64,000 nucleotides of DNA from Candidatus Oxydemutatoraceae bacterium (GCA_965220085.1 CBDCOZ010000002.1:128001-192000), one strand, 5' to 3'. Counted from the stretch's first letter, positions 8,366-58,869 are shown. The notes: a model not told the origin generated them from the sequence alone. Numbers and translations: made by a program.

Positions 8366-9266
8366 CTACCGCAGCGGGCCTTCCAGAAAAAGACGCAGCC
8401 GCAAGCGCAGGGCGTCAGGCGCTATGGCAAAGGTGATGGTGGCGGGGTTGTCGCTGTACAGCAACGCTCCGCTCGTTTGTCCGGCAGGAGCGGCGCCAAC
8501 CTTGAATCTGAAACTGGCATAGTTGGCATCGGGCATGGCGGTGCCGGGCAGTCTGTATGCAAATGTGGGTATACTGTTGCCTTCCAACTGAATCCCCCTG
8601 CCACTGATCAATCTCACATCAAGATTTTCTTGCAGTATTCGTCCCCCGTTAGTTTCAAGCGTGCCGTTGGCGGGCAAGGTTAGAATTTCCAGAGCGGTAA
8701 GAACATCGCCATCCTCATCTTCGAACGGAAAGTCGGTCGTCTTGAAGCGGTAGAAGGTAGTGCCCGGCGCTATGTAAATGGTGTTGTCCAGTGAAACCGG
8801 GGCATCATCGACATTGGCCACGGCGGTGGCTATCTGCAGGCATCGCTCCTCGTCATTGTTGGCATTGTCTCGAAAGCGCACGCAAATCTGCAGAAACTTG
8901 CCGACATGGGCCTGCAAGGGGGTGAAAGTAGGCGCGAGGGGGTGAACGGGAGTGTAGGCGCCGCCATGGGTGTCGGCCTGGCTCCAGATCCAGGTTGTGG
9001 AACCGAGGTCGGTGGTTGGCGTATTGTCCGGGTCTTCTATGGTGCCTTGGGTTGCGGTGATGGCGGAGTCTTCGGTGGGCGCGTTTAGGTTGCCGACATA
9101 GGTGACGGTTGGCATACCGGTGGCCGGATTGTTCTGCGCCTGCGCCTGAGTGGCTAGGATACAAAACGCGAGCAGGCAGAGTGCGCTACTCGCTACCCGC
9201 CGGTTACACGCATAGGGCGGGGGGGGGGGGGGGGGGGGGGGGGGTATTATAAACTTGTTGGTTCAT
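8366..9266 (-). CDS. Secreted Ig/cadherin-like protein ending LRLRLRLFLEGPLR; frameshifted in a poly-G tract as assembled
   Basis: AGGAG RBS and ATG at 9266 (MNQQVYNTPPP), G26 tract, then in another frame a signal peptide RRVASSALCLLAFCILATQAQA continuous with ORF 8366-9115 (DFPFEDEDGD cadherin-like motif). Confidence 0.8.
9219..9244 (+). repeat. Poly-G tract (26 nt)
   Basis: Direct count of the G run. Confidence 0.9.
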
Positions 9267-9322
9267 ATCTATTCTCCTATTCTTGGACATTCTGTTGCTT
9301 GGTGGCGTAGCAAATGTAGCCG

Positions 9323-9673
9323 TCAATCCGTTGCCCGTTGCCGGACAGAACTTTGGTGTTGTTCCAGGATAGCGGCAAGGTCTTCTTGGAGCATCCGGAC
9401 ATTTCCTTCTCGGTGAAATCGTTCCAGAAGGACGGTAAGGTCATCGTACATTATCCGGATTCTCTCTTCTTGGTCATGCGGAAGCGCCTGAGCATCTTGT
9501 TGCTCCATGGCATCGCGAATGTAGTTGCCAACTCGCCGCCAGTCGCCGGCCAAGGCTTTGGCATCATCTTGAAAAGACGGCAAGTCCTTTTCAGTGAGGC
9601 GGACGGGCGGAGGGCATATCTGAAATACGGATGCCATTCCGCGCAGGTAGTGTTTTATCTTCTCGGTCATCAC
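9323..9673 (-). CDS. Small hypothetical protein, paralog of 10946-11239
   Basis: MTEKIKHYLRGMASVF...DDAKALAGDW.RVG.YIR.AMEQQ shared with the paralog; its tail is a degenerate internal re-duplication. Confidence 0.7.
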   Translation of the reverse strand: MMTEKIKHYLRGMASVFQICPPPVRLTEKDLPSFQDDAKALAGDWRRVGNYIRDAMEQQDAQALPHDQEERIRIMYDDLTVLLERFHREGNVRMLQEDLAAILEQHQSSVRQRATD

Positions 9674-9683
9674 AATTCCTATC

Positions 9684-10244
9684 TCATGCGGAGGGATTAC
9701 GCTTGTCAGGTTCGTTTGGTGTCATCTCCATAGAATGAAGCAACGCATCGCGTAACTTAATTCCAATGACATAAGTTATCTTTTTTGCCTCTAAACCGGC
9801 ATCGTAAGCATAGTCGGTTATCACTTTGTATTCCTCCGGGGCATTTTCTTTCAAGTCTTTCAACAAGTCATTTTTTGCATAAGAAAAGCAGTGCTCTTGT
9901 ATCTCATAACGGTTCATGCCAACCACCCTGTCCTTCAGTTTATCAGCGTAGAGAGTGGCTATGCCGTCGGCCTTTGCTTTCTCAGATATTTCTTTCCCGT
10001 AATCAGTCAGGTTGATAGGGCTGGTTGATTGGGCAACCGACGCTCCAAACTTGGTACTGAGTACGCTCTGCAATCCTTGAACGGTGTTACTCAGGGTTTT
10101 AAGGCCTTTCTCCAATCTGGCAAAGCGAGCCTCCAAAGCATCAAGTCTCGTATTTGTTTTAGTGACAAATCGTGTGGCGCAAACGATGACCACAACCGCC
10201 GCCGCCAGCAGCCCGGAAGTAAGCAGGAAATCAAAAAGCAACAT
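9684..10244 (-). CDS. Hypothetical N-terminally membrane-anchored coiled-coil protein
   Basis: Hydrophobic N-terminus, heptad-like RLDALEARFARLEKGLKTL, SPINLTDYG motif. Confidence 0.65.
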   Translation of the reverse strand: MLLFDFLLTSGLLAAAVVVIVCATRFVTKTNTRLDALEARFARLEKGLKTLSNTVQGLQSVLSTKFGASVAQSTSPINLTDYGKEISEKAKADGIATLYADKLKDRVVGMNRYEIQEHCFSYAKNDLLKDLKENAPEEYKVITDYAYDAGLEAKKITYVIGIKLRDALLHSMEMTPNEPDKRNPSA

Positions 10245-10412
10245 AGGTTAAAGCAAAAATGTATTAACAATCAATGCGCACATTATATACATACAATCAA
10301 TGCGCGCTTGGCATGCATATCATATAAATTACCTATGGTGGCATCTGTATATCCTTTAATAAGCCGCATATGCGGTCTATGCATTCGGTCAAAGAACCTT
10401 GGCAAAGCGCGG

Positions 10413-10519
10413 AACCTTGCCATCGCTACGGTGCGATTGTCAGATACGGCGAGAGCCGTTTTCGCGATGCCCACAGCAACAGCAAGCCCGGAACAGCCAT
10501 CACCGCTGTCAGAACAAAG
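10413..10519 (-). repeat. Copy of ampG 3' end (att-like direct repeat)
   Basis: 107 bp matching 11448-11554. Confidence 0.9.
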
Positions 10520-10542
10520 GGACGCAAGAGACTCGGTCAAAG

Positions 10543-10992
10543 TTAAGAGCTGCTCTTGTGCAGAGCGTAGCCCACAACCACAGACAGGATGGTGCCAAGC
10601 CCAATAGCGGGCCAGCCCTGATCGTAATATAGACCAAAGGCAATCACTCCCAAGGCGGCTAGGATGACAACAAGCCAAATCCATTGCCCTCGTTTTTGTG
10701 CGATGTGAAATTGGTTCATGTCATTCTCCACAAAGTCATTACGCTTCTGTTGCTCTGCTTCGGCCATACGCAAGATGCGCTCGGCTGCGCCAGGCAAGAC
10801 CGCATCATACCGGGCAAAATCTTCGGGTGTGGGTAGGGGGCCGTAATGCGCTTGTATAGAATGTGTTTCTATAACCCTCCCCTGTTCCCGTTCCGGTACA
10901 ATTGTACCCTCTCGTGCGGATTCCGTCGGAAGGGGTGAGGGCGGCTTACTTGATGTCTGTCGCTTGCGCTTGGATGTCTTTTTCTTGGACAT
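10543..10992 (-). CDS. DUF2335 family membrane protein
   Basis: HYGPLPTPEDFARYDAVLPGAAERILRMAEAEQQKR followed by two TM helices. Confidence 0.85.
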   Translation of the reverse strand: MSKKKTSKRKRQTSSKPPSPLPTESAREGTIVPEREQGRVIETHSIQAHYGPLPTPEDFARYDAVLPGAAERILRMAEAEQQKRNDFVENDMNQFHIAQKRGQWIWLVVILAALGVIAFGLYYDQGWPAIGLGTILSVVVGYALHKSSS

Positions 10993-11239
10993 TCTGTTGT
11001 TCCATGGCGCGGCGAATATAACCACCGACCCGCTGCCAGTCGCCGGCTAAGGCTTTGGCATCATCGTGGAAAGAAGGCAAGTTCTTCTCGGTGAAGCGTT
11101 TGGGCGCAGGATATATTTGGAATGCGGATGTCCTCAAGTATGCCTTGCGCCGACCCTTGGAGAACTCAAGTTTGGGCGCAGGGGATATTGGGAATACGGA
11201 TGCCATCCCGCGCAAGTAGTGTTTTATCTTTTCTGTCAT
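10946..11239 (-). CDS. Small hypothetical protein upstream of DUF2335
   Basis: DDAKALAGDWQRVG motif; overlaps the DUF2335 start; duplicated at 9323-9673. Confidence 0.7.
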   Translation of the reverse strand: MTEKIKHYLRGMASVFPISPAPKLEFSKGRRKAYLRTSAFQIYPAPKRFTEKNLPSFHDDAKALAGDWQRVGGYIRRAMEQQNVQEKDIQAQATDIK

Positions 11240-11460
11240 AACAATCTTTAATGTGTTATCAGCATCAAGCGACTTACTATTATAGTACAAAGTTCAGAAT
11301 GCTTGGTTTTGTCTGTTACCAATACATATTACACTGAGGACAAAATTTGTGCAATTCGGGTCATTATGGCTTATTTTCCTTCTAAAGGTGTCCAAACCAA
11401 GCTGTCGAAAACAAGCCGGAACGCTCAAAAATCCGCCACCGATGTAGAACCTTGCCATCG

Positions 11461-12858
11461 CTACGATGCAATCGTCAGATAGGGGGAGAGCCGTTTTCGC
11501 GATGCCCACAGCAACAGCAAGCCCGGAACAGCCATCACCGCTGTCAGGACAAAGAAGATGTCCCAGGCGCCGCCCAGCGCATCGACGACTTGCCCGCTGT
11601 GCGCCGACAGGGTTGTGCGCGAGAGGTTGCCGATCGATGCGAGGAGTGCGTATTGGGTGGCGGTGTAGGCGCGGTCGCACAGTTGCGAGATGAAGGCGAC
11701 GAAGGCGACGGTTGAGATGGCCGAGGTGAATTGGTCGCTGACGACGGCGGCGGCAAACAGGCTGATGTCGGGCCCGACGCGCGCCAGCCATGCGAACATC
11801 AGGTTGGTTGCCGCCATCGCGATGCCGCAGATTATCAGCCCTTTGAGCAAGCCGTAGCGGATGCTAAAGAGACTGCCGAGGATGGAAAAGACGACGATGG
11901 TTCCCCAGCCGAGTAGCTTTGAGTAGGTGGCGATGTCGGCTTCGCTGAAACCGACTTCGCGATAAAACAGCAACGACATGCGGCCAAGAAAAGCCTCGCC
12001 GACTTTGAACAGGACGATGAAGCCGAGCAGCAACAAGGCGGTTTGCATGCCGTTGCGGCGGAAGAATTCGGACAGCGGCAACCAGAACGATGCCCGAATC
12101 CATGCGCCGGCATTGCTGAGCACATTGCCAAGGGCATTGCCAAGCACATGACCGGGCGCATGACCAAGCACAGGGCCGGAAGCGTTGCCGGCTTTGATGC
12201 CAGTTAGCACCGCCGCTCGCTCGCTTGCGGGTTCTTTGGCGAACAGCAGCGCGATGTTGGTCGCCACGATGACAACGGCCATCAGCAGATACGTCATCCC
12301 CCACGGGTTTTCAACGCCGGCTTGTTTGAGCCAGTCCGCCGCATACAGTGCGATGGCGCCGCCCGCGTTATAGCCGGTGTACCAGCCGGCGGTTGCAATC
12401 GCAGCGCCCGCCGCAATCATCGCCGATTCATTCTTTTGCATCAGTTCAATGCGCATCGCATCGATGGCGACATCCTGAGTGGCGGATGCGGCGGCGATAA
12501 TCAAACCGAAGGTTGCAATCACCCACGGATTGACGGGCAACGAATAAAAATACAAGCCGACGGCGGACAGCAGGATGACGGCTTGCAACATCAGAATCCA
12601 CGACCGCCTGCGTCCCAGCGCATCGCCAAGCCACGGGATGCGCAGCGCATCGACGAGCGGCGCCCACAGAAAGTTCAGAGCGTAGACGGTGGCGATGTAG
12701 CCGAACAGACCGATGGCGCTGCGGGTGAAGCCCGCGTCCTTGAGCCACAGCGTTATCATCGCGCCGTGCAGCACCCACGGCAAACCGCTGATGATGCCTA
12801 TCAGCAGCACCTTGGCGAGGCGGCTGTCGGCATAGGCTTTGAGCACGGAGGCGGTCAT
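11461..12858 (-). CDS. ampG: AmpG muropeptide MFS permease
   Basis: GIISGLP, LNFLWAPLVD, GRRRSW, ASATQDVAIDA.RIE, YTATQYALLAS; ATGA overlap with xth. Confidence 0.93.
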   Translation of the reverse strand: MTASVLKAYADSRLAKVLLIGIISGLPWVLHGAMITLWLKDAGFTRSAIGLFGYIATVYALNFLWAPLVDALRIPWLGDALGRRRSWILMLQAVILLSAVGLYFYSLPVNPWVIATFGLIIAAASATQDVAIDAMRIELMQKNESAMIAAGAAIATAGWYTGYNAGGAIALYAADWLKQAGVENPWGMTYLLMAVVIVATNIALLFAKEPASERAAVLTGIKAGNASGPVLGHAPGHVLGNALGNVLSNAGAWIRASFWLPLSEFFRRNGMQTALLLLGFIVLFKVGEAFLGRMSLLFYREVGFSEADIATYSKLLGWGTIVVFSILGSLFSIRYGLLKGLIICGIAMAATNLMFAWLARVGPDISLFAAAVVSDQFTSAISTVAFVAFISQLCDRAYTATQYALLASIGNLSRTTLSAHSGQVVDALGGAWDIFFVLTAVMAVPGLLLLWASRKRLSPYLTIAS

Positions 12859-13652
12859 GTCGCGGATGTCACAGAAATGGCGGGCGGCAGTTTGTAGTCT
12901 ATTATCAGCGGCGCGTGATCGGAGAAGAAGCGCTCCTTGTAGATGCGCGCTTTGTCGGCGCACCCGCGCAAGGCCGGGGATGTCACGTGATAGTCGATGC
13001 GCCAGCCGACATTCTTCGCCCGCGCCTGTCCGCGGTTTGACCACCAGGTGTACTGGTCGGGGCCGGGGCAGACTTCGCGAAAGGCGTCGTTGTAGCCGGC
13101 CTCATCAAACAGCCAGTCCAGCCAGGCGCGCTCCTCGGGCAGAAAGCCGGAATTTTTTCTGTTGCCGCGCCAGTTTTTCAAGTCTGTCTCTTTGTGCGCG
13201 ATGTTCCAGTCGCCGCAGATGATGTAGTGGCGTTTGCGCCGCTTGAGGGCGAGCAGGTGCGATTTGAATTCGTCCAAGAAGCGAAACTTGGCTTGCTGTC
13301 GTTCGTCGCTTGAGGAACCCGACGGCGCGTAGAGCGAGATGACAGAGAGATTTTTGAACTGCGCCTCGATGTAGCGGCCTTCGCTGTCAAACTCGCGGCT
13401 GCCAAAGCCGGCAATCACTTTGCGCGGCTTGTGGCGGCACAGCAGGCCGACGCCGCTGTAACCTTTTTTGAGCGCGCCGTGATAGTGGCAGCGGAACGCT
13501 TTGGGATGAAAGACCGTATCCGACAGTTGCTCGGGCTGGGCTTTGAGCTCCTGAATGCAGACGAAATCCGCCTTCTGTCGCGCAAGCCAGGCGAAGAAGC
13601 CCTTGGCGTTGGCGGAGCGGATGCCGTTGGCGTTGAAACATATTATGCGCAT
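12855..13652 (-). CDS. xth: Exodeoxyribonuclease III
   Basis: NANGIRS, CIQELK, GYSGV, GDWNIAH, GWRIDY, SDHAP. Confidence 0.96.
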   Translation of the reverse strand: MRIICFNANGIRSANAKGFFAWLARQKADFVCIQELKAQPEQLSDTVFHPKAFRCHYHGALKKGYSGVGLLCRHKPRKVIAGFGSREFDSEGRYIEAQFKNLSVISLYAPSGSSSDERQQAKFRFLDEFKSHLLALKRRKRHYIICGDWNIAHKETDLKNWRGNRKNSGFLPEERAWLDWLFDEAGYNDAFREVCPGPDQYTWWSNRGQARAKNVGWRIDYHVTSPALRGCADKARIYKERFFSDHAPLIIDYKLPPAISVTSAT

Positions 13653-13786
13653 AGGCTCATCGTCGGCTTGGCGCGGTTGCGACTGTTTTCCTGTTTGTGG
13701 CGGCGCTTGTTCATGGCTACTTTGGTCGCCGACCTTTCCTTTCGGAATTGAGGCCGGCCTTACATCATAATAGCGCAGAGACTATA

Positions 13787-15865: not shown

Positions 15866-15875
15866 GCGAGAATTG

Positions 15876-36014: not shown

Positions 36015-36764
36015 TTGTCTGCGCTGACGGTTATATACGCGCTATTGTTTTATTCTGCTGCCGCGTTTCTGGCGGGCGGGCTTGCGTATCGCATATTCGT
36101 TTATAAGCGCACTCCCGCCCCCCTGAAGGTGCCGACGACGCCGGCGCCGACGACTCGCGCCGGCGTGGTTTGCCGCATGTTCAGAGAAGTCGTGTTCTTT
36201 GAGAGCCTGTTTAAGTCCAACAAATGGACCTGGCTTTTCGGCTGGCTTTTTCACTTCGGCTTGTTGCTGGTGTTGTTGCGGCACTTGCGCTACTTTACCG
36301 AACCGGTATGGTTTTGGGTCGAATGGTTGCAACCGCTTGGCAAATACGCCGCGTGGATGATGGTCGCGGGGCTTGCCGGGCTCTTTCTGCGCCGGCTCGC
36401 GGTTGACCGGGTGCGCTACATCTCGGCGCCGTCGGATCATCTCATGTTGTTGCTGTTGCTGGCGATAGGAGCGAGCGGCATTTTGATGACGTTTTTTTAC
36501 CCCGTGGACATAGTGGGACTCAAGGGCTTCTTTCTCGGCCTGATGTATTTTGACTGGCTGCCGTTGCCGGCGGACCCGTTGCTTTTGATTCACCTCGCAT
36601 TGGTCATCGCGCTGATGGCGGTGTTCCCGATAAGCAAGTTGTTGCATGCGCCGGGAGTGTTTTTCAGCCCGACCCGAACGCAGGTGGATAACCCGAGGAG
36701 AAAAAGACACATTGCCGAGTGGGCGTTGAAACTCGAACGGTCGGACGGCGCGACGAGGAAATAA
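36015..36764 (+). CDS. dsrM: DsrM membrane b-type cytochrome
   Basis: FHFGLL...RHLRYF, FPISKLLH; TTG start after AAGGGG. Confidence 0.93.
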   Translation: MSALTVIYALLFYSAAAFLAGGLAYRIFVYKRTPAPLKVPTTPAPTTRAGVVCRMFREVVFFESLFKSNKWTWLFGWLFHFGLLLVLLRHLRYFTEPVWFWVEWLQPLGKYAAWMMVAGLAGLFLRRLAVDRVRYISAPSDHLMLLLLLAIGASGILMTFFYPVDIVGLKGFFLGLMYFDWLPLPADPLLLIHLALVIALMAVFPISKLLHAPGVFFSPTRTQVDNPRRKRHIAEWALKLERSDGATRK

Positions 36765-36766
36765 TC

Positions 36767-38299
36767 ATGGCCGAAGCCGAATATCAAATACCCGAATACA
36801 GAGAATACCGCGCCATTCCCAAGTTGCGCGAAGAGGCGATGGCGGACAGCAAGCCGTTTGAGGCCAAACCGCAGTTTCAGAAACCGCTGGGGTTTCCGGG
36901 AGAGTTGGTCGATGATTGGGAGAACAAAGCGGTCGAGAAGATGGGCAGTCTGGTCGGCAAATACCGCACCCTGCGAGTGTTTCTGGACTCGTGCGTCAAA
37001 TGCGGCGCCTGTACCGACAAATGTCATTACTATCTGGGCACGACAGACCCGAAGAACATGCCTGTCGCCCGTCAGGATTTATTCCGCAAAGTATACCGCC
37101 GCTATTACACGTTTGCCGGCAAGTATTTCCCGTGGTTGGTCGGCGCGCAGGATATGACCCGCGAAGTGCTGGATGATTGGTACAGCTATTTCCACCAGTG
37201 CTCGCAGTGTCGCCGCTGCTCGGTGTACTGCCCCTACGGCATAGACACGGCGGAGATATCCATGGCCGCTCGCGAAGTGATGGACCACGTGGGCAAGGGA
37301 CAGAAATATTGCAATGAGATTATCGGCAAAGTGCACTCGATAGGCAACAACCTCGGTCTGCCGGAACCGGCGTTGCGCGATACTTTGGATGGTTTGGAAG
37401 AAGAAGTGTTTGAAGACACCGGCGCCAAGGTGCGCTATCCGCTCGATGAGAAAGGCGCCGAGGTGTTGTTGGTCACCCCCTCGGCGGACTTTTTTGCCGA
37501 GCCGCATGTGGACGGCTTGATCGGCTACGGCAAGGTGTTCCATCAAGCCGGCATATCGTGGACACTGAGCTCGCAAGCCAGCGAAGCGGCAAACTTCGGT
37601 CTTTTTATCGGCAGTTATGAGAACATGCGCAAGATCGCGTTGCGGGTGCGGCGGGCAGCCATAGACCTCGGTGTCAAAAGAATCGTGTTTGGCGAGTGCG
37701 GGCATGCGTGGCGGGTGGCGTACAGCTTTTTGAATACGCTTGCGGGCCCGTTTGACTTTCTGGACCCCGATTATCCGGTGCCGCAACACATCTGCGAAGT
37801 GACCCACGACCTCATCAAGCAAGGCCGGTTACGCCTGGACCCGTCGCAAAACGACGACATGGTTTTGACTTTTCACGACTCGTGCAATGTGGCGCGCGCC
37901 TCGCGCATGGGCGATGTCGCGGGCGGGCAGTTTGCGATTCCGCGCGAGATTCTCAAAGCCTGTTGCAATCACTTTTACGATATGCCTTCCGATACCATCA
38001 AAGAGGGCACATACTGTTGCGGCGGCGGCGGCGGGCTGTTGACCGATGACTTGATAGAATTGCGCGTGAAAGGCGCGCTGCCGCGGATGGAGGCGTTACA
38101 GGAAGTGACAGAGGATTACGGCGTCACCCATATGGCGGCAATCTGCGCCATCTGCAAAAGCCAGTTTTCCAAAGTGTTGCCCCAATACGGATTTTCAATG
38201 GATCAAATCGTCAGTTTGCATCAACTGGTGAGCAATGCGATAGTGCTGGAGCGCGAAAGCGGCGCGGATGCCGAAACAGCGCAGGATGAAGCGGCGTAA
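36767..38299 (+). CDS. dsrK: DsrK
   Basis: CVKCGACTDKC, CSQCRRC..YCPYGID, CCGGGGG. Confidence 0.96.
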   Translation: MAEAEYQIPEYREYRAIPKLREEAMADSKPFEAKPQFQKPLGFPGELVDDWENKAVEKMGSLVGKYRTLRVFLDSCVKCGACTDKCHYYLGTTDPKNMPVARQDLFRKVYRRYYTFAGKYFPWLVGAQDMTREVLDDWYSYFHQCSQCRRCSVYCPYGIDTAEISMAAREVMDHVGKGQKYCNEIIGKVHSIGNNLGLPEPALRDTLDGLEEEVFEDTGAKVRYPLDEKGAEVLLVTPSADFFAEPHVDGLIGYGKVFHQAGISWTLSSQASEAANFGLFIGSYENMRKIALRVRRAAIDLGVKRIVFGECGHAWRVAYSFLNTLAGPFDFLDPDYPVPQHICEVTHDLIKQGRLRLDPSQNDDMVLTFHDSCNVARASRMGDVAGGQFAIPREILKACCNHFYDMPSDTIKEGTYCCGGGGGLLTDDLIELRVKGALPRMEALQEVTEDYGVTHMAAICAICKSQFSKVLPQYGFSMDQIVSLHQLVSNAIVLERESGADAETAQDEAA

Positions 38300-47630: not shown

Positions 47631-49238
47631 TCATGCGCTATTGTCCTCGCAAAACGCGCCGAGTTTCTGAGACGCTTCTGCCGCCACCGCCGCATCACCG
47701 GCAAGCTCGGCCAGCCGTCGGGCTTCTGCCCAAGCAACGCGCGCCTCTTGGAGGCGCTCCAAATCATGCAGGGCGTTCCCCCGATTATGATGCGCCGTCG
47801 CATCTGTCGGCTGCAACTTAATGGCCGTGTCAAAAGCCTCAAGCGCCTCCCGATGACGGCCCAAATGGCTCAGGGCTTCTCCCCGGTTACTATGCGCCAT
47901 CGCATGTTGCGGCCGCACCGCAATCGCCTTGTCGTACGCCTCAAGCGCCGCCTCGTAGCGCTCCAAGTCATACAGGGCGGTGCCCCGATTGTTATGCGCC
48001 TTCGCATCCTCAGGATTCAGCGCGATGGTCTTGTCGCAAGCCGTGAGCGCCTCCTCATAGCGCCCCAAATCGCGCAGCGCCGCCCCCCGATTGTTATGCG
48101 CCTCCGCATCGTCCGGGTCCAACGCAATAGCCGTGTCGTACGCCGCAAGCGCATCCTGCGGGCGATGCAAATCGCGCAGGACATTGCCCCGATTGTAATG
48201 CGCCTTCGCATATTCCGGATTCAGCGCGATGGCCTTGTCGTACGCCGCAAGCGCCTCCTGCGGGCGATGCAAATTGCGCAGCGTAATCCCGCGGTTATAA
48301 TGCGCCTTCGCATATTTTGCATCCAGCGCGATGGCCTTGTCGTAATCCGCCAGCGCATCCTCGTGGCACTCCAGCGCACTGTTGAGATTGCCCCGTTCAA
48401 AATAGCGCAGCGACAGCGTCTCTTGTTCGCCGTCGGTACGGATTTTCTCATCGAGGTAAGCCCGGGTCTTGACAAAATCATAAGCCTTGTCGTTCGCGTT
48501 CGCCGCCGCAAGGCCGGCGAGATCGGAAAACATAAACGTCTCCGATATTCCCGATTGCTCAAGGATGCGCAACAACAATTCTTTCTCCTCGCGCCGCACC
48601 TCGTAGGGCCGCCCGTGAAAAAATTCTTTCCCGATGCCGGGCCGCCCAAAGATAAACAGCGACTGCTGGGTTACCATCCGGATATTGCTGTCGCCGGGAC
48701 ACCACGCCTGCAATTTGTCCGGCGGTTCTCTCTCGCCAAAGAAGTCTTTCAACTCCCCTTTCAATTTTCCGCGCGCTTTGATCTCCTCAATCTTTTCGGG
48801 CTCGTCCAAGCGCAAGGCAAACACCTTCCCGTTCTTCTCAAGTTGGTCCTTGCAAGCGAACCACAGCGCGGTCAGGGCGTTTTCGGTGAAGTCAATCAAG
48901 CCGGTCGCGGCGCCGTAATGTTGCAAGTGCGCCATGATTTCAAGCGGTTGCTTATCGCCGTGTTCGGAAAAGCGCATGAGCGCCTCGTTCACGCGTTCGT
49001 GCAGATAGCCGACAAACAGCGAATGTTCCGCATACGGGTGTTGTTCTATCTTCCGCTTCAAGCGCCGATATGCGCCGGAGTCCAACCCCCAATCGGCGTC
49101 GGCCTGACCGCGAAAGGCAAGCCGCCCTTGCAACGGCATCACCCAACGCATATAGTTTGCCAAGGCTTCGCGGGCTTTTTCCTCCGCCGTGCCGGACGGT
49201 TGCGCAGGTTGCGGCAATTTTTCGGGTTGTCGGGGCAT
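47631..49238 (-). CDS. FRG-domain protein with 7 TPRs (copy 2)
   Basis: Paralog of 44218-45816, including about 80 bp of upstream DNA. Confidence 0.9.
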   Translation of the reverse strand: MPRQPEKLPQPAQPSGTAEEKAREALANYMRWVMPLQGRLAFRGQADADWGLDSGAYRRLKRKIEQHPYAEHSLFVGYLHERVNEALMRFSEHGDKQPLEIMAHLQHYGAATGLIDFTENALTALWFACKDQLEKNGKVFALRLDEPEKIEEIKARGKLKGELKDFFGEREPPDKLQAWCPGDSNIRMVTQQSLFIFGRPGIGKEFFHGRPYEVRREEKELLLRILEQSGISETFMFSDLAGLAAANANDKAYDFVKTRAYLDEKIRTDGEQETLSLRYFERGNLNSALECHEDALADYDKAIALDAKYAKAHYNRGITLRNLHRPQEALAAYDKAIALNPEYAKAHYNRGNVLRDLHRPQDALAAYDTAIALDPDDAEAHNNRGAALRDLGRYEEALTACDKTIALNPEDAKAHNNRGTALYDLERYEAALEAYDKAIAVRPQHAMAHSNRGEALSHLGRHREALEAFDTAIKLQPTDATAHHNRGNALHDLERLQEARVAWAEARRLAELAGDAAVAAEASQKLGAFCEDNSA

Positions 49239-49409
49239 ATCTGCTTTCCTCCAGTGACGGATTCTACCCTTCCCCCGCAAACCCCGCAAGGCATCCCCGC
49301 GCCGAGACTGATATGCTTGCCTCCGCTTCGCTCCAACACCTCCGCAGCGCTTCTGGGGCGCTACAATACATGCGACGTATTCGTCAAAAATAATGAGGGG
49401 GACTTTCTC

Positions 49410-49673
49410 ATGACAACACACCGCACACGACAGGAAGAAGCAGATCGCAACAGCGAAGCGCTTGACAAATTATTGCCGCAGTATATTCAAGATAATTTTG
49501 CGGGGCAATATGCTTTGATGCGCGATGGCAAGGTCGAACTCATCCTTAAAGGTTTTCACGTTGCCGTCATGGCAGGAAACAGGATGTTTAAGGATCGGTT
49601 ATTTTCTGTTGAGAAGATCACCGACGCGCCTATCCATTTGGGATTTTATTCTTACTTTCATCCCGGCTCTTGA
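49410..49673 (+). CDS. Small hypothetical protein (DUF5678-like)
   Basis: GAGGGG RBS; N.EA...LP...GQYALMRDG...G...F...FS.....PIHLG; appears only as the tail of shadow ORF 47748-49673. Confidence 0.6.
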   Translation: MTTHRTRQEEADRNSEALDKLLPQYIQDNFAGQYALMRDGKVELILKGFHVAVMAGNRMFKDRLFSVEKITDAPIHLGFYSYFHPGS

Positions 49674-49957
49674 TCACATTGCCATCATAAGCCGGCCTCG
49701 CGCCCGCCCCTCTGCCACCGAGGGCATCCGTGCGATCTAAGGGGGTCACATTCTCCCGGTTCAACCCGCAAGCCGCAGAACCGATTGCCCAAGCGGTGAT
49801 ACACCGTTAGAACCGCGCTGACACAGCGCACGGATTCCGCGTGCCATCGCGCTTGTGAGTTGGTCATGTGCGCACTCAATTCCGTGCGCAGAACTCGCGC
49901 TATCGCAGCCGGCCTTCCAGACGGAGTGTGTCGCGCAAGCGCTGTGGGTTGCTCGCG

Positions 49958-50190
49958 CTATCGCAACGGGCCCTCAAGAAAGAGGCGCAACCGCAAGCGT
50001 ATATCGGTAGACTTCAGGTTGATGGTCATCGTATGGAGGACGCTGGAGTCGGTGCCATCGCTGACTCTGAAGGTGAAACTGGCGTAGCCATCCATGCCGC
50101 CGACCCCAGGTACCGGAGAAAACCTCAGGTCGCCTATATTCGCTTGCGGTTGCGCCTCATTAAATGTTATCTGCGTATCATAAACAATAC
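49958..50190 (-). pseudogene. Orphan C-terminal fragment of a cadherin-like protein ending IRLRLRLFLEGPLR
   Basis: GDLRFSP...YASFTFRVSDG...HTMTINL aligns with the last repeat of 56851-58869; no signal peptide; 5' boundary approximate. Confidence 0.75.
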
Positions 50191-50412
50191 GCAGATAACT
50201 CGGTAGCGGTTTTGGGTCTGCCGATAGGCAGATGCGCCGACGCAAGTTTTCAGGAACGCGGAAGGGACGAGGCGTCTGTCGGTTATGCCGAATGCGGCGG
50301 TGGATACGTGTATAGCATGGATGCTCGGAGTGTCAGTCCGTAGTCCTTTCCGTGGTGTTCCGGTGTTAAATCATAGCCAGATGGTCTGTTCGACCCCCCG
50401 TAAAGGGCTTCA

Positions 50413-50620
50413 AATGACCTATCTCTGCTCTTTTAAGCCGGAAGTGGCCGCTTTTAGAAGGCTTCGATGCCGTATGATGGCCTATTGTTGCAGAATACCG
50501 TGTTGAAACCGGAAATCCGGCGTATTTTTGGCGTTATCAAGAGATATCGGGCATATTGGCAGGTTTCGTTTGCGTTAAAATATGGAATTCCGTATAAATC
50601 ATACAGATATTATACACAGG
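50413..50620. repeat. About 210-bp non-coding repeat, copy 1
   Basis: Matches 53457-53664 (AAGTGGCCGCTTTTAGA, TTGCAGAATACCGTGTTG, ATCCGGCGTATTTTTGGCGTTAT, CAGATATTATACACAGG). Confidence 0.85.
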
Positions 50621-52264: not shown

Positions 52265-52639
52265 CCGGGAAGGCGCACGACCATAGCCGGATGCAGACAC
52301 GCCGCAAGCCCTGCGCCCATCTCTGTGGTCGGCGCACTGGGTGGTGCCATGCGAGTGGGTGGCCGCTGGCTCGCGGGCCTGTCCGGAGGCCACTGCTCGC
52401 GAGCGCCAAGTCAAGCGCAAGCGACAAAGACGGACGCGGGCTACGGTCGCCAAGCGCCGTAGCGAGCGCAGCCAGTCCGCCCAAGCGCCCCTGTGTTGTT
52501 CTGCGACAGCGCTACCGGCGGTCTGGCGGGGCGGGGTTCATGTCGTGCATGTGCTCAAGGCAAGCGCAAGAGCGTAGCGAGCGCGGCGGAGGCGCAACGG
52601 TGCCCCTGTGGGGGCCGGTGACAGTGCTGGCAGCGCGAC

Positions 52640-53457: not shown

Positions 53458-53664
53458 ATGACCCATCGCTGCCTTTTTTAAGCCGAAGTGGCCGCTTTTA
53501 GAGGGTTTTGATGCCGTGTGAGGGCTGATTATTGCAGAATACCGTGTTGGAGCCGGCAATCCGGCGTATTTTTGGCGTTATTTAGAGATATCTGGCATAT
53601 TGACAGGTTCTGCTTGCGCTAAAATAGAAAATCTCGTATAAATCATGCAGATATTATACACAGG
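53457..53664. repeat. About 210-bp non-coding repeat, copy 2
   Basis: Matches 50413-50620; abuts the IS left end. Confidence 0.85.
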
Positions 53665-53738
53665 CACCTGCGCTGGAATAGGGAACTTCATATGAATCAT
53701 ACGGCTATTATCCACAGATATCTGCGCTAAAATAAGAA

Positions 53739-54240
53739 TCATGCCCACGATGGTAAATATCTAACATATCTTCTGGCTTTTGATCCGTTAGGGGCTGGCT
53801 TAATCAGGTTGTTATCTCTTGCGTCTGAAATGATATGGGAAACTCTGCTCATGCTTCTTGCGGACAATCCGAAGCGCTTGCGAAGTGTCTGATTTGTCAT
53901 CTGTTGCGCCAATACCCACTGCAAAACGCAGTGTTGGTAACAGGCGCGAATACGCTCAGCACGGTCCATTTTACTGAATGGGCGCGGACCAAAGATAATA
54001 ACGATTGTGCGCTTCAAGTCGGCTCGGAAATCCGGCGCGGGCAATTGATAATCTTCCGCCTCTTGTATTACCTTATCAATCCCGCTGCTCCTTTCTTCAC
54101 AGATGCCAAAGCGCCGCATGATATCCGTAAGATCCTCGTTGCGGGATTGGTGTCTGTCAATGAAGCGTTTAACAGGCACAATTGGTTCGCCAGGATTGCT
54201 TATCTCAACTCGGTCGGGATATATCTCAATCATAGGCGAC
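53739..54240 (-). pseudogene. C-terminal fragment of an AlbA/HATPase_c_4-type ATP-binding protein
   Basis: PMIEIYPDRVEISNPG...SRNE.L...RRFGICEERSSGIDKV...RACYQHC...MTNQTLRKRFG; N-terminus replaced by REP-like DNA. Confidence 0.75.
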
Positions 54241-54496
54241 ATCCCGCGCACTCCCCTCGCAGGGGAATTGCTCGCACTCAGTGCAAAGGCCGAGTCGCGG
54301 GCAAGGGCGATGCGAAGAGCGGGCGAGTAAGAGTTGGTGCGAGCGGGAGTCATGCGGCGCGGGGTTGCCGGTTGCGCTAAAATAAGAATCAAGCCCGCGA
54401 TGGCAAATATCTAACATATCTTCCGTGTTTAGGCTCTGTGACCGACTAGTACTTATAATGGGGCAAGCCGCCGATACAAAGCCCGATGAATTCCCG

Positions 54497-55678
54497 ATGA
54501 AAATCAAATACGCTTTAATGAGTTCCAACTCCGACCCCAAGTATCTGGACTTCTGGCCGGCCGCAGCCGAAGCGTGGCAGAAGCTCGGCATAACACCGGC
54601 GCTGTTTTACATTCCCGACCACGCCGCCGATGCGCCGGTTGTGCCGCAGGAGGTGGCGGGCACCGAGGTGCACACCGTGCCGCTGTTGCCCGATGTGCAC
54701 ATCGTGATGCAAGCGTCGTTGCTTCGGTACTGGGGGAGTTGCAAGTATCCGAACGATGTGGTGATCATCAGCGACATCGATCTGTTGCCTCTGTCGCGGC
54801 AGTTTTTCATAGAGCAGTTGGTCGAAGTGGCGGATGACCGCTATGTGCATCTGAAATTTGACAACGCCAGATACAAGCATTTTTATTTGTGCGATGCGGC
54901 GGCGGGCGCGCGGCACGATGCCACAAGGATACGTTATCTGCCCGCTTGCTATCACATCGCCAAAGGCGGCTTGATGCATGCGGTGTGGTGGGGCTCCGAT
55001 GTTGCCGACAGTTCGGGAGAGACAGGCAGCGCCCCTTCCGACTGGAAGTCTTGTTGCGAACGAGTGCTGCCGTATTTCCGGCGGCGGGAGGGGGAGGATA
55101 TGAAACATACGTTTGCTCCCAAAACCGATACCGCGCAGGAGTCCGGCAACGGCATATTTAACAGGTTCGGCGATGAGCTGTACTCGTCTGCGCGTGTGCA
55201 TCGGTTTGCGCATCAAGAGGTGTTTCATTACGTAACCTACCCGGCGCAGCAATATTATTTTTTGAATCGCAACGCATGGATGTATGACCCCGAGCGGTTG
55301 CGGCAAGGCTATTACTCGGCGGCGCATCTGCCGCGCCCGTATGGGCAATACAAGTCGGCTATAGATGCGTTGCGACGGCGCCGCGCCCCGCCGTTGATCT
55401 ACCGCGCATTATTTTGGACGATAAAAGCATTCGGCGCGGCAGGCCGGCGTTCGCCCAAACCCGTCGCGTTTCTTTTTTACTTTGCTATCGCGGCGGGTGA
55501 GGATGCATTCGGGGCGATTGACCGGCGCACCGGTTCGGGCGGCGCGGCATTGTTGCAAGAGCATTGCAAGGGGATGTGCCAGGCGCATGCCGACAACCCG
55601 CGCATGGTCGCGGCGCAGAAAAGGTATCGGCGGTTGCAGGAAGCGCTGCGCCGCTTACTGCCGCGCCCGCGACCATAG
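54497..55678 (+). CDS. Glycosyltransferase-like protein, paralog 2
   Basis: Same motifs and TATAAT leader as 51077-52264. Confidence 0.7.
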   Translation: MKIKYALMSSNSDPKYLDFWPAAAEAWQKLGITPALFYIPDHAADAPVVPQEVAGTEVHTVPLLPDVHIVMQASLLRYWGSCKYPNDVVIISDIDLLPLSRQFFIEQLVEVADDRYVHLKFDNARYKHFYLCDAAAGARHDATRIRYLPACYHIAKGGLMHAVWWGSDVADSSGETGSAPSDWKSCCERVLPYFRRREGEDMKHTFAPKTDTAQESGNGIFNRFGDELYSSARVHRFAHQEVFHYVTYPAQQYYFLNRNAWMYDPERLRQGYYSAAHLPRPYGQYKSAIDALRRRRAPPLIYRALFWTIKAFGAAGRRSPKPVAFLFYFAIAAGEDAFGAIDRRTGSGGAALLQEHCKGMCQAHADNPRMVAAQKRYRRLQEALRRLLPRPRP

Positions 55679-56827
55679 CCGGACGCAAGCGCGCCACAAC
55701 CGTCGGGGGATGCAGAGCGCGATGTTCTTGAGAATGTTCTTGGCATAGCGCAGGCTGATATTCGGGTTGCGACAAAGCATGCGGCAGACGCAAAAGAGCT
55801 TGTGCGGGCGCGCGAATAAACGCATCAGAAAGGACGGCTTCTCGGCGCGCCGCGCCAAGGCCGCCTCGGCTATGGATGCCCACGCCTTGCCCATCTTGGT
55901 CGGCACATCGTAGTAGTGATGGCGGGGCAAGACGGGCGGCGCCTTGCGGTACTCTTCGTATAGTTTGGGTTCGTTGTCTATTTCCCGTATGCGGTCGATG
56001 ACATCGTCCGTGTTTCCGTAGTCGTGGCAATTGACGAAGGCGCGCGGGTTATAGTAGTCGGCAATCGCGGGGCAACCGTGATATATCGGGATGCTTCCCA
56101 CCGCCAACGGGTGTGATATTTTTTCCGTGACATAGCCGTTGATAGAAGTGTTTTCAAAAGCGATGGTGAATTTGTAGTCTTTGATGAAGCGGAGTTTTAA
56201 ATCAAAGGGGTGAATCCACCCGGGCTCGGTTTGCTCGGGGAATGACATGTTGTTGAGAGACTGCCCGGGGCAATCGACCGGCTTGTATCGCATGAGTTTG
56301 CGGCAGAAGTCACGACGGATTTTTGTTCCGGGCCGGCGGTCGTTTGAATAGACGTAATTGCAGAATTTTGTTTTCGCTATCTCTTTGTGCCGATGCCAGT
56401 TACCCAAGAAGTCCAGCAGTCCCAGCCCCAGACAGACGTTCTCGCAGTCTCCCTTGCGCGCGGGAGGAAACGATGAAAAAACATAGTCGTACCCGTCCGG
56501 GTTCGCTATCATGGGTTCGCCGATTTTTGTTAATAGCAATGGCCGGGCGCCGAACGTCCAGCGCGCGAAAAGGGCGGACATAAACAACTGGGCATCGTCG
56601 CCGGACAGGACGCTGAGCAATATCAAATCCGGATCTTTTGCGACCCTGACGAAGCGATAGGGAAGCGCGTCATATTCTTTGCGGAAGTTTACGGGGAAAG
56701 GCAGAACCGCCTCCTTGTCTTCTTGATAAGAAAACGGTTGCGCCGACGAATGCGGCGCGCGGCATATGATGCACAGATAGCGGATGACCGCCTTGGCATC
56801 ATCCGCCGCACAGTTTTGTTTGCGCAT
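55655..56827 (-). CDS. GT10 alpha-1,3-fucosyltransferase-like protein
   Basis: KFCNYVYSN, YKFTIAFEN...GYVTEKI....GSIPIYHG, YNPRAFVN; basic amphipathic tail. Confidence 0.88.
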   Translation of the reverse strand: MRKQNCAADDAKAVIRYLCIICRAPHSSAQPFSYQEDKEAVLPFPVNFRKEYDALPYRFVRVAKDPDLILLSVLSGDDAQLFMSALFARWTFGARPLLLTKIGEPMIANPDGYDYVFSSFPPARKGDCENVCLGLGLLDFLGNWHRHKEIAKTKFCNYVYSNDRRPGTKIRRDFCRKLMRYKPVDCPGQSLNNMSFPEQTEPGWIHPFDLKLRFIKDYKFTIAFENTSINGYVTEKISHPLAVGSIPIYHGCPAIADYYNPRAFVNCHDYGNTDDVIDRIREIDNEPKLYEEYRKAPPVLPRHHYYDVPTKMGKAWASIAEAALARRAEKPSFLMRLFARPHKLFCVCRMLCRNPNISLRYAKNILKNIALCIPRRLWRACVRLWSRARQ

Positions 56828-56850
56828 CGGCTTGGGGGAGTGACTCGGGT

Positions 56851-58869
56851 TTATCGCAACGGGCCTTCCAGGAAGACGCGCAACCGCAAGCGCAGGCGCA
56901 GGCGCTCCGCCAAGCTAATGGTCATGGTGTGGGTTGCGCTGTCTAAGGCGCCATCGTTTACGGTGAAGGTGAAACTGGCGAAGTCAGGGGCGGCGGCGGA
57001 GTTGTCCGGGGGATAGAAAGTGAGGTTGCCGTTGCGCAGCTCGTCGTCGGTTACTTCGGTGTTGGCGGTCACTGCGGCGCTGCCGTTGCGCAATGTGCCC
57101 TTGCCGGATGCTATCGGGGTGACTATGGTTATGTGATCCAGGCTGTTGCCTTCCTCGTCCCTGTACGGGAAGTCGGATTCCGTGAAGATGTACGGATTGG
57201 TTGCGCTTGTGTTGACGGATACGCTCACCGAATTGTCAGCGCTGGTGGGCACATCATTGACATGGGTTACCACGGCGCCGTCGGAGCACAGCATGGGGGC
57301 GCCGACGCTGCCGCCCTCGGCGTTGTTCAGAGCATCGCGGAAGAATGCGCAGACTCTGATGTGCATGTTCCCATCCGCCTGCGAGGGGGTGAAGGCGGCG
57401 GCGTTGGCTCCGGAGATGGCGGCGTATGGGCCGGTCTGGGCATCGGCGCGGTACCATTGCCAGCGTATGTTTGCATTGCTTATGCCGTTGGGGTCGGTAA
57501 TGCCGTCGGTACTGGCGGTCAGCTCGGTATCCTCGTCATAGCCGGCGGTCGGGTCTGCGGCCGGAGTCACTGTGGGGGCGCCGCTGGCGGCGCCCTGAGT
57601 GGCACTGACGAGGTCTATGATGAGGGTGGCATCGGCGGTGGCCTCGTTGGCGACTGCCGTTGAGGGTGCTGATGTTGTGCCGGTGTCGCGCACCCGGTAT
57701 GTGAATGTCGCATAGTCGTCGGTGACGGTGGCGCCGTCAGCCGGGTAGTATGCCAGAGTGTCCAGTTCGGCCAGAGTCAGCGTGGCGTTTGCGCCGCCGG
57801 TGACGGCTGTGTTGGAAGCGCCCACCCGCCGCACCAGAGTGCCCGCCGTGGGCAGGGTGACTATGTGGATGCCGTTGATGGTGTCGTCATCGACATCGCT
57901 AAATGGAAAATCCGCCCTGACAAAGCGGTGCGGATTGTTGCTGCTGACATTGGCCGGCACCGCAACCGTGCTGGTGCTGCCGACAGGCGCATCGCTGATA
58001 TTGTCTATGCGGGCGACCTCGGAGCAACGCGTCTCGTCGCCGGGAGGGGTATGCAGATCCTTGAAGCTGACGCAGAGGCGCACATACTGCTCCGCCTGTT
58101 CATCGCCGGGGGCAAAGTGGTCGGGCATGTTCCCGGTGGAGGTCGCGCCTCTGATGTCGGCGTATGGGCCGGCGCGGGCGGGGGATTGTTGCCATTGCCA
58201 ACTATAGGCGATAGCGACGTTGCCTTCTCTGCCGAAGCCGACTGGGTCGATGCCGCCGTTCAGGTCATTGATATCGCCAGGTCCGCCTTCGAGTATCTCA
58301 TCCTCCCAGTAACTTTCTCTGGAAAATGTGGTCAGGGACTGGTGGAAGGGCGCGCCGATGGCGGGTGTTTGCGCGACCGCGCGAAGGTTGATGCTGAGCG
58401 TGGCTTCGTTGGAATCCAGGAAACCGGCCCTGACAGTGAATGTAAAACTGGTGTAGCCGAATTGTGCCTCCTGATTGGCTTCCGGCCAGTATTTGATGTC
58501 GCCGAGGTTGGCGGCGGTCACATTCTGATTCACCGTAGCGGCGGAGCTGGCCACCTGCAGGGTGCCCCGAGCCGGCAGGCTCTTTATCGTGATGTTGACC
58601 AGAGTATCCCCGTCCCTGTCGTTGAAAGGGAAGTCGTCCCTCTTGAAGGTGTACGGCATGTCGGAGGTGGCGTTGTGCGGTATCCAAAGCGTGTTAGGCA
58701 TGGCCTCCGGCGCCGCCGCCGATGCCTGAGCAATCGCTTGGTTCGCCGTGGCGAGCAGGGCAAGCATAGCCGACAACAAGAGGCCTCGGCGCATCATCGT
58801 TGCTCGCCAGTTGCGCTGTCGCAGCGCATGCGGGAAGACCCGCTCTTTGAGTTGAGATTTAATTCGCAT
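56851..58869 (-). CDS. Secreted protein with alternating cadherin-like and Ig-like repeats, ending LRLRLRLRVFLEGPLR
   Basis: Signal peptide MMRRGLLLSAMLALLATANQAIA; three DFP(F/Y).D.D/E...LP..GTL...FT(F/Y).V repeats and two WQW...F.P...IR.C..F.D repeats. Confidence 0.85.
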   Translation of the reverse strand: MRIKSQLKERVFPHALRQRNWRATMMRRGLLLSAMLALLATANQAIAQASAAAPEAMPNTLWIPHNATSDMPYTFKRDDFPFNDRDGDTLVNITIKSLPARGTLQVASSAATVNQNVTAANLGDIKYWPEANQEAQFGYTSFTFTVRAGFLDSNEATLSINLRAVAQTPAIGAPFHQSLTTFSRESYWEDEILEGGPGDINDLNGGIDPVGFGREGNVAIAYSWQWQQSPARAGPYADIRGATSTGNMPDHFAPGDEQAEQYVRLCVSFKDLHTPPGDETRCSEVARIDNISDAPVGSTSTVAVPANVSSNNPHRFVRADFPFSDVDDDTINGIHIVTLPTAGTLVRRVGASNTAVTGGANATLTLAELDTLAYYPADGATVTDDYATFTYRVRDTGTTSAPSTAVANEATADATLIIDLVSATQGAASGAPTVTPAADPTAGYDEDTELTASTDGITDPNGISNANIRWQWYRADAQTGPYAAISGANAAAFTPSQADGNMHIRVCAFFRDALNNAEGGSVGAPMLCSDGAVVTHVNDVPTSADNSVSVSVNTSATNPYIFTESDFPYRDEEGNSLDHITIVTPIASGKGTLRNGSAAVTANTEVTDDELRNGNLTFYPPDNSAAAPDFASFTFTVNDGALDSATHTMTISLAERLRLRLRLRVFLEGPLR

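Follow-up and report, generated by a model that had tools for sequence, protein, structure and literature searches.

Chaperone-usher and type V pili rely on incomplete Ig-like folds, each of which accepts from another polypeptide an amphipathic strand whose hydrophobic residues alternate. The SpyTag/SpyCatcher pair consists of a tag of ~13 residues, which is one strand of an Ig-like CnaB domain, and a catcher, which is the rest. In cellulosomal scaffoldins, the X-module-dockerin (XDoc; e.g. 3kcp, 5g5d, 5k39) serves as a cell-surface anchoring handle. In a recent preprint, the C-terminal strand of PilC/PilY1 is described as completing the β-sheet of PilK-family minor pilins, and in GspK of the type II secretion system (T2SS) the same strand is described as supplied in cis (Ellison et al., bioRxiv 2026, PMC12918778). 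Here we analyzed a 14-residue C-terminal tail that ends three open reading frames (ORFs) in a 64,000-nucleotide stretch of DNA (hereafter the window) from Candidatus Oxydemutatoraceae bacterium (GCA_965220085.1 CBDCOZ010000002.1:128001-192000). The window is part of a genome of 2,492,841 bp in 3 contigs with a GC content of 55-56% (G000), and the three ORFs are located on its minus strand. All analyses were computational. They lead us to propose, with a probability of roughly two in three, that the tail serves as donor half of a domain split in nature and that tag and adaptor, a separately encoded protein termed the catcher, engage in strand complementation in trans. PilC/PilY1-PilK strand complementation is the closest mechanism in print that we found, and XDoc is the closest fold.

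In the PilY1/PilK system, a short C-terminal peptide completes a separate small protein and cis and trans arrangements alternate, as they do here. The acceptor there, in contrast, belongs to the minor pilins of a type IV filament, and one adhesin per pilus compares with about 216 cargoes in G000. The catcher also differs in having an ordinary Sec signal peptide and a dockerin-like tail; no N-methyl pilin motif was detected on it by Pfam at E values up to 1, and the motif is present in the neighboring Gsp pseudopilins. With XDoc the proposed domain may share an Ig-like β-sandwich directly followed by a dockerin at the C-terminus of large secreted proteins, and the dockerin sequence signature is found in the catcher profile (alignment A2, positions 227-287); a cohesin partner was not found in G000 by a PF00963 search. 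The domain studied here, however, comes from a Gram-negative symbiont, its sandwich is larger and not covered by any Pfam model, and strand 1 would be split onto the cargo. In chaperone-usher and type V pili like subunits polymerize via chaperone and usher, whereas here a single adaptor would serve many unrelated cargoes. SpyTag/SpyCatcher is engineered and locked by an isopeptide bond, whereas tail and catcher are natural, with no evidence of a covalent bond.

Distribution and conservation of the tail

A six-frame search of G000 for FL[EQ]G[PSA]L gave 221 matches, of which 216 are closed by a stop codon after exactly one more residue, a recurrence far beyond chance. The consensus of the 216 tails is R-L-R-[LVI]-F-L-E-G-P-L-R-stop. 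The open frames upstream have a median length of 412 aa and reach at least 100 aa in 188 of 216 cases; 28 are shorter than 100 aa, including 24 below 50 aa. Tail ORFs of at least 100 aa (n=187) sum up to 150,312 aa, which corresponds to about 18% of the genome. Fourteen of them exceed 1000 aa and the largest comprises 14,168 aa. The bodies of 190 tail proteins of at least 60 aa fell into 47 clusters (35% identity over 70% of the length). A Pfam scan of 97 tail proteins assigned a family at E<=0.001 to 35 and none to the other 62. The families were He_PIG (14), Big_9, Cadherin_3/4/5, Cadherin, PPC, Flg_new_2 and SCAB-Ig; Cys-rich bodies were a further type.

Among the codons of the 216 copies, second positions are invariant or nearly so. 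The copies differ only at third positions and, in leucine codons, between C and T at the first; 188 of them terminate with TAA or TAG and 28 with TGA. Invariant second positions together with synonymous and stop-codon variation indicate selection on the peptide and its end point, not on the DNA.

Among all genomes scanned, tails were confined to the sponge symbionts Ca. Oxydemutatoraceae, where 15 of 19 genomes have them. The exact DNA pattern with the terminal arginine, present at 211 sites in G000, was absent from 40 relatives, from one genome each of 185,579 species and from JGI metagenome contigs; these zeros are misleading because the tails of relatives end in Q, E or P or use lysine. When the last residue was allowed to vary, RVRVFLEGPLQ-stop was found in four of 18 family relatives and in none of 22 genomes of the order's three other families. 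This relaxed pattern, whose reversed-pattern controls gave no match, was confined across the whole collection to records of Candidatus Oxydemutatoraceae bacterium and uncultured candidatus Porisulfidus sp. Diverged tails were searched with a profile of 100 tails (alignment A1). Matches were obtained in G007 (18; e.g. IRLRIKVFLEGPLQ-stop), G011 (17; e.g. LRVRVKVFLEGPLR-stop), G010 (11; LRLRVFLEGAV plus a short extension), G006 (5; similar to G010, e.g. VRIRVFLEGAVIP-stop), G009 (2; e.g. KLRLRVFLGGAAR-stop), G003 (4; e.g. LRFRIRVFLEGALQ-stop), G005 (1; LRLRVRVFLQGALQ-stop), G016 (24; e.g. LRLRIRVFLEGALE-stop), G018 (16; similar to G016) and G014 (6; e.g. IRLRVFLEGAVPTTPVDTIQTDP-stop), and diverged versions include …VFLEGPLQ, …FLEGALE and …FLGGAAR. 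In the profile loci that were read, the motif lies at or near the stop codon in 20 of 20 cases in G006, G007 and G009-G011, in five of five in G003 and G005, and in 11 of 12 in G014, G016 and G018. Neither profile nor pattern gave a tail in G001, G004 and G008, and G013 gave only noise. In the relatives the tail closes giant repetitive proteins with open frames of 2317 to more than 4900 aa at loci of 46-64% GC, and the giants of G015 and G017 start with Sec signal peptides.

Against 1.84 billion representative proteins the tail profile produced 118 matches, and 77 of the 112 new identifiers were G000's own. Four foreign proteins end in the tail (P0069, P0117, P0129 and P0140), and P0135 alone carries it internally.

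Most of the original prediction, which had been made from the three window ORFs, is borne out by these data. The shared ends were read back as LRLRLRLFLEGPLR-TAG, IRLRLRLFLEGPLR-TAG and LRLRLRVFLEGPLR-TAA, and a regular-expression search across the genome revealed 216 copies, far more than the three ORFs. The synonymous and stop-codon variation over all copies agrees with the proposed selection on the peptide. The tail had been described as terminal, as is the case in 216 of 221 occurrences, and its presence in 15 of 19 family genomes, at loci of widely differing GC content, extends it beyond recent paralogues. Its placement on at least 47 clusters of differing bodies separates it from the last strand of a cadherin domain, and the notion that it is part of such a domain was ruled out by the many unrelated bodies. 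No family model covers it, neither in Pfam (97 tail proteins) nor in NCBIfam (two window tail proteins).

The claim that the tail fits no known sorting signal likewise stood. As with classical C-terminal signals, a conserved end element occurs on many unrelated secreted proteins of one genome, yet no defining feature of PEP-CTERM, LPXTG, GlyGly-CTERM, type IX secretion system (T9SS) C-terminal domains, outer-membrane protein β-signals, autotransporters or type I secretion was found. A transmembrane helix of the PEP-CTERM, LPXTG or GlyGly-CTERM kind does not follow the motif, because the protein ends one residue later in 216 of 221 matches. In contrast to the aromatic end of the β-signal, the last residue of the tail is R in G000, the relatives have Q, E, R or a short extension ending in P, and Pfam revealed no barrel domain in 97 tail proteins. 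T9SS C-terminal domains comprise 80-100 aa as opposed to 14 residues, and NCBIfam models of the TIGR04183 and TIGR04131 type did not match two window tail proteins, the catcher or P0135. Type I substrates lack a Sec signal, whereas 129 of 188 tail ORFs of at least 100 aa have a Sec-like signal peptide according to a crude hydrophobicity rule. A literature search for the FLEGPLR motif, for strand-1 motif strings and for the domain split found no description, and we know of no C-terminal sorting signal that acts as a missing piece in the fold of a common adaptor. What we would rate as new is the proposed strand complementation as a proteome-wide address tag with a shared adaptor.

Several further observations concern tail sequences and their surroundings. 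In three G000 proteins (C1:~36359-38000, C1:23869-25290 and C3:1171426-1173513) the motif is located near the N-terminus, in the order signal peptide MKKLL..VWA, NPMTVPQDVL.., acidic linker, LRLRLRVFLEGPLR and GGS. Two of them continue with PPC repeats (Pfam E 4.6e-20 and 8.2e-35) and the third has no family match. A trypsin-like protease assignment of one of these proteins (TAYHC, GGSSGG) was dropped for lack of Pfam, NCBIfam and PDB support. The last 25-50 codons of tail genes are tandemly duplicated at C3:513720-514219, C3:908934-909473 and C3:1303674-1303949 with periods of ~156, 168 and 120 nt, and every copy ends again in tail and stop. The six bases after tail stops are biased to CGCGAR, and 153 of 216 stretches of 150 nt downstream of tails have more than five matches in the genome, pointing to repeat families behind tail genes. 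One tail (RIFLEGPLRQRAPTG; C3:~629400-630200, plus strand) has lost its stop, and the frame continues for 160 aa into a ferredoxin-like coding sequence. In G012, two short frames at C1:1226715-1227498 end in RIRMFLEGPLP-stop amid repeated small ORFs and look like remnants of tails.

A putative split domain and its catcher

P0135 is a protein of 1700 aa with HYR, PKD_5 and CHU_C-associated Ig domains. Near its end it carries CPRLRLRLFLEGPLDTSTLLMNDELRTDNYLPLREPY, including the tail-like CPRLRLRLFLEGPLDTS, followed by a C-terminal domain of 224 residues on which Pfam found no family. Database searches yielded 46 homologues of this intact domain. The strand-1 motif was recognized in 32 of them by regular expression and in nine more by eye; of the other five, three begin inside the domain (two on contigs <2.5 kb) and two lack the DW landmark. 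Large proteins of Bacteroidota end in the intact form. In the family itself, giant ORFs of G001 do so as well (24 matches; open frames from 408 to 17,496 aa, mostly >1,000 aa), and the five domains read there begin with ..ARVYLQGAY.., ..ARVVLQGAL.. (two), ..RARVFLQGAY.. and ..AGVFLQGAY... One intact G001 domain sits at an N-terminus. As the motif forms strand 1 of intact homologues and the remainder of the domain is found separately in the family (see below), sequence comparison identifies the tail as a homologue of strand 1 of a widespread unnamed domain, the two parts of which Oxydemutatoraceae encode apart. The tail is not an invention of G000.

The fold of the intact domain was modeled with AlphaFold. 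For the intact member P0143, an alignment of 56 sequences gave a model with a pLDDT of 82.6 and a pTM of 0.82, whereas the pLDDT of 51 obtained with 17 sequences was too low for use. The P0143 model consists of a confident strand 1 (E4-10, blocks at 88-96), a β-sandwich and a less confident helical tail. Foldseek returned no match at E<=1e-3; 5k39_B was found with E 7.8e-3 and a probability of 0.87, and 5g5d_B with a probability of 0.91 and a TM score of 0.53 on the target. VIA-align against 48,161 chains gave 3kcp_A with Z 7.2, a root-mean-square deviation of 4.1 and 148 aligned residues, and 5g5d_B with Z 6.8 (149 of 156 residues); the next row had Z 4.7. Both structural searches hence rank the XDoc of cellulosomal type II complexes first, a match that is moderate since Z values below 8 may reflect a common arrangement alone.

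When the P0135 domain without its first strand was used as a tblastn query, a single place in G000 was found, C3:469478-470125 (28% identity, E 8e-6). The surrounding gene encodes the catcher, with the Sec signal peptide ..LLSAHANA|Q, and the mature protein starts with RSMNTGLSDFIPADDPY, which corresponds to the loop after the RLRLRLFLEGPL strand of P0135. A second catcher copy was not found in G000. Stand-alone homologues have the same layout: in all 12 read in relatives and in two in G012, the signal peptide is followed by M..L....P..DPYC and strand 1 is missing. The catcher profile A2 retrieved 327 proteins from a collection of 5.8 billion. The best 73 of these 327 (E<=1e-47) are stand-alone proteins of 201-464 aa, of which 68 carry the core DW motif and none carries strand 1. 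Among ranks 74-120 (47 matches, E about 1e-35 to 1e-29), strand 1 was present in 32, for example as DLKVFLEGPF or NLKVYLEGPY, and several of the 47 were sourced as Bacteroidetes, Bacteroidales or Ignavibacteria. Positions 227-287 of A2 match type I dockerins (2vn5_B, E 1.9e-4; 5k39_B, E 1.6e-3), and the catcher sandwich has no match in Pfam (E up to 1), NCBIfam or the PDB sequences. In a protein atlas, the catcher is nearest to unnamed Bacteroidota and Ignavibacteriota clusters, and Dockerin_1 is present on 19% of the members of one cluster.

Gene order links the two parts. On one strand of G015, a catcher (1202958-1202128) is followed by a giant (1201826-1191267, ending in LLRVKLFLEGPFR-stop), a second catcher (1191236-1190406) and a second giant (1189997-1175073, ending in FLRVRVFLEGPLQ-stop). 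In G017, the order from 891138 down to 847411 is giant, catcher, giant, catcher, giant, and the catcher ORFs begin 42 and 19 nt past the tail stops; over both genomes the distance ranges from 19 to 42 nt. Such a spacing is expected if an intact domain was cut after strand 1 and the remainder gained a signal peptide, and on the sequence level the arrangement in G015 and G017 looks like gene fission in place. Intact and split forms both occur within the one family, G001 having the intact form instead of the tail/catcher split. With a protein query, the intact or catcher domain was detected in 13 of 18 family relatives and in none of the 22 genomes of other families, and the catcher profile added G012, G005 and G018. 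Tails and a stand-alone domain match occur together in 14 of 19 family genomes, and neither was found in the 22 others. A catcher ORF without strand 1 was read in nine of the 14; for G003, G005, G016 and G018 the assignment reflects the match and the open-frame length.

The closest foreign homologues of the 672-aa tail protein of the window, P0003 and P0015 (33-38% identity), carry an autotransporter β domain (PF03797) in place of the tail, and the whole G000 genome has no PF03797 match. In this lineage, the tag seems to have taken the place of an export or anchor module in cis.

Binding of tail and catcher was assessed by complex prediction with catcher residues 30-322 (alignment A2) and the last 36 residues of the 672-aa window protein (alignment A1). 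The pair scored 0.79 (0.79, 0.78 and 0.79 in the individual runs) as compared with 0.01 for the best of three controls. In the benchmark, 116 of 157 solved complexes and two of 215 mismatched pairs attained this mark, counts that hold only roughly because custom alignments were used. The runs agreed in at least 80% of contacts with a partner pLDDT of at least 56. Residues 20-32 of the 36-aa piece (RLRLRLRLRVFLE) contact catcher residues 106-113, 129-141, 162-177, 184-199 and 208-221, which are the conserved strands around VDWVLV, LLLSNGRV and IHHRNH. As no solved complex resembles the pair by sequence, recall of a known complex is unlikely. The prediction supports binding of the tail by the catcher and does not show it.

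The export repertoire of G000 includes one Omp85, one TolC-like gene, two secretins and a complete T2SS operon (gspC-D-A-B-E-F-G-..-J-K-L-M, C3:452.1-465.2 kb). The catcher gene is located ~4 kb downstream of this operon on the same strand, separated from it by a 258-aa ORF, two rhodanese genes and a 203-aa ORF. An order of T2SS genes, rhodanese and catcher is seen in four genomes: G000, G015 (C-D-A-B-E, rhodanese, catcher), G002 (the same) and G006 (C to N, rhodanese, two small ORFs, an IS605-type TnpB gene and three catchers). The synteny may be inherited and not functional because the genomes are related, and the catcher genes found in G012 are about 100 kb or more away from gspD. A large protein with a signal peptide follows the catcher in G000, G002 and G015; the 951-aa neighbor in G000 has no tblastn match elsewhere in G000 or in the loci of relatives examined. 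An N-terminal domain of ~200 aa (alignment A5; ..SRF..G.DP....C.., ..[TR]C.I...) is common to tail giants and the large post-catcher proteins of G000, G002, G015 and G017. It has no PDB sequence match, and a cohesin-like assignment is unsupported.

Proposed mechanism and alternative readings

The ancestral form would be a β-sandwich of ~190 residues with a dockerin-like calcium-loop module that closes large secreted proteins and starts with a strand 1 of the type x-[LV]-[KR]-V-F-L-[EQ]-G-[AP]-[YFL]. In Oxydemutatoraceae the gene would have been cut just past strand 1, so that the cargo retains the 14-residue tail and the remainder becomes a separate Sec-exported catcher of about 270-330 aa. 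Judged from their signal peptides, cargo and catcher would both reach the periplasm via Sec. There the tail would enter the incomplete sandwich as the missing strand, a step suggested by homology, gene order and complex prediction and moderately supported by them, and the cargo would gain a complete handle resembling XDoc. There are weak indications that the completed unit is an anchoring or secretion handle with the T2SS as exit route; it might dock to a receptor for surface anchoring or pass the cargo to the T2SS encoded beside the catcher. In G000 the tag would have spread to about 216 proteins that share one adaptor gene. An amphipathic β-strand tag for export, anchoring or strand complementation had been predicted; strand complementation is the part that gained support, with a candidate acceptor at hand, and it may serve export, anchoring or both. 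That the pair constitutes a portable natural tag-and-catcher targeting system, in which the handle is recognized by the adjacent T2SS or a surface receptor and more than 200 unrelated proteins share one address, is a tentative extension that we consider rather unlikely.

Several points weigh against a split domain. Its co-occurrence is imperfect: in G014 tails were found and a catcher was not (85% complete, 230 contigs), G013 and G004 gave catcher-like genes and no tail, and G008 gave neither; moreover, the genomes are related and do not represent independent samples. The stoichiometry of one catcher gene to about 216 cargo genes in G000 is awkward. The three G000 proteins with the motif near the N-terminus imply that the strand does not require a free C-terminus. 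In A2, the first dockerin loop of the G000 catcher looks degenerate, and the best cohesin (PF00963) match in G000, with E 0.056, is below the cut-off. The fold match to XDoc is modest, the pLDDT of the complex is moderate (56-62) and its calibration rough, and the placement of the tail in the strand-1 slot is inferred from contact lists, not from a superposition.

A first alternative holds that the tail is self-sufficient. Its strict alternation L/R-L-R-L-R-[LVI]-F-L forms a leucine face and an arginine face, and such a strand could bind the outer membrane or lipopolysaccharide or be read by the T2SS or the β-barrel assembly machinery (BAM), the catcher being an unrelated neighbor. In its favor, the cargo carries Sec signal peptides and has no other known route to the outer membrane (no autotransporter domain, one Omp85), and a complete T2SS is present. 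This idea leaves unexplained, however, the match of the tail to strand 1 when the rest of that domain is encoded apart and lacks the strand, the 19-42 nt between tail and catcher in relatives and the predicted complex, and a terminal R, Q or E is not the aromatic residue of the BAM β-signal. We regard it as unlikely. A catcher that acts as a transient periplasmic chaperone or pilot, capping the tail for export competence or T2SS delivery and then released, is judged similarly unlikely. One catcher gene per about 216 cargo genes would fit such a role, as would the order of T2SS genes, rhodanese and catcher in G000, G002, G006 and G015, and strand exchange by chaperones has a precedent in chaperone-usher pili. 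On the other hand, the cis domain is permanently attached to its own protein, which argues for a structural handle, and synteny within one family may be inherited, with the G012 catchers lying far from gspD.

Far less probable is that the tail is a functionless leftover of fission or a DNA repeat or recombination anchor by which gene 3' ends spread. The tandem duplications of tail-bearing 3' ends at three C3 sites, the recurrent downstream sequences (153 of 216) and the 28 frames below 100 aa speak in its favor, but a peptide that is kept while DNA identity is broken is the opposite of a recombination anchor, and the peptide is conserved across genera and over loci of 46-64% GC. The reading as a DNA repeat or recombination site was rejected on the codon-position profile. 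Self-association of tails into a cross-β surface coat of many proteins is equally improbable: alternating Leu/Arg strands are strongly sheet-forming, but stacked arginine faces would repel each other, the catcher evidence is ignored and no computed result speaks for it.

If the split-domain reading is true, a sponge symbiont devotes about 18% of its genome to proteins addressed by a 14-residue tag, and a concrete account can be given of how an uncultured symbiont shows a large and variable adhesin-like set to its host. The presence of cis and trans forms in one family would make this a clear case in which a domain was split and its small half then spread through the proteome. As the catcher gene lies beside type II secretion genes, the long-open question of cargo recognition by the T2SS becomes approachable here. 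Should the extension to a portable targeting system hold as well, which we consider rather unlikely, T2SS-type cargo would have in the tail its first targeting signal that is short and transplantable, and the pair would be a natural counterpart of SpyTag/SpyCatcher. A natural peptide-protein pair of this kind could serve protein engineering.

Tail genes of the window and their neighbors

The features of the three window loci and the position of the catcher gene are compiled in Table 1. The first ORF had been given as extending to 9266 and the two full-length members as having Sec signal peptides. The peptide was confirmed for the 672-aa protein. The first claim had to be revised, as the ORF called from the first ATG is shorter and excludes the signal-peptide-like segment. 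This segment (RRVASSALCLLAFCILATQAQAQ) lies in frame upstream of the 249-aa ORF and reaches about 9241, and none of ATG, GTG and TTG precedes it. The 8366-9241 gene therefore either uses an unusual start codon or is decaying. The second ORF is clearly the remnant of a gene.

Table 1. Features of the tail loci in the window and position of the catcher gene
Feature	Position	Strand	Basis or remark
249-aa tail protein (from first ATG)	8366..9115	-	ORF call; weak Cadherin_4 match (Pfam)
Tail LRLRLRLFLEGPLR	8369..8410	-	followed by TAG at 8366-8368
Partial second tail 3' end, reads LEGRLR-stop	49900..49920	-	~40 nt past the stop codon that ends the 95-aa fragment
Fragment of 95 aa left from the 3' end of a cadherin/Big_9-like gene, tail retained	49958..50245	-	Big_9 E 0.0054, profile positions 53-89 only
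Tail IRLRLRLFLEGPLR	49961..50002	-	followed by TAG at 49958-49960
672-aa tail protein with Big_9 / Cadherin_3-like modules	56851..58869	-	ORF call; Pfam Big_9 3.5e-8, Cadherin_3 2.1e-6
Tail LRLRLRVFLEGPLR, 14 residues, proposed donor strand	56854..56895	-	followed by TAA at 56851-56853
Sec signal peptide of the 672-aa protein, MMRRGLLLSAMLALLATANQAIAQ	about 58726-58797	-	sequence
Catcher gene (322 aa)	G000 C3:469169-470137, outside the window		tblastn and ORF

The 672-aa gene is flanked directly upstream by an integrase-core (rve) transposase (58933-60063, minus strand) and directly downstream by a GT10 fucosyltransferase-like gene (55655-56827, minus strand). Further neighbors of tail genes are a short staphylococcal-nuclease-like ORF (7922-8182) and an FRG-plus-TPR protein (47631-49421), both on the minus strand.

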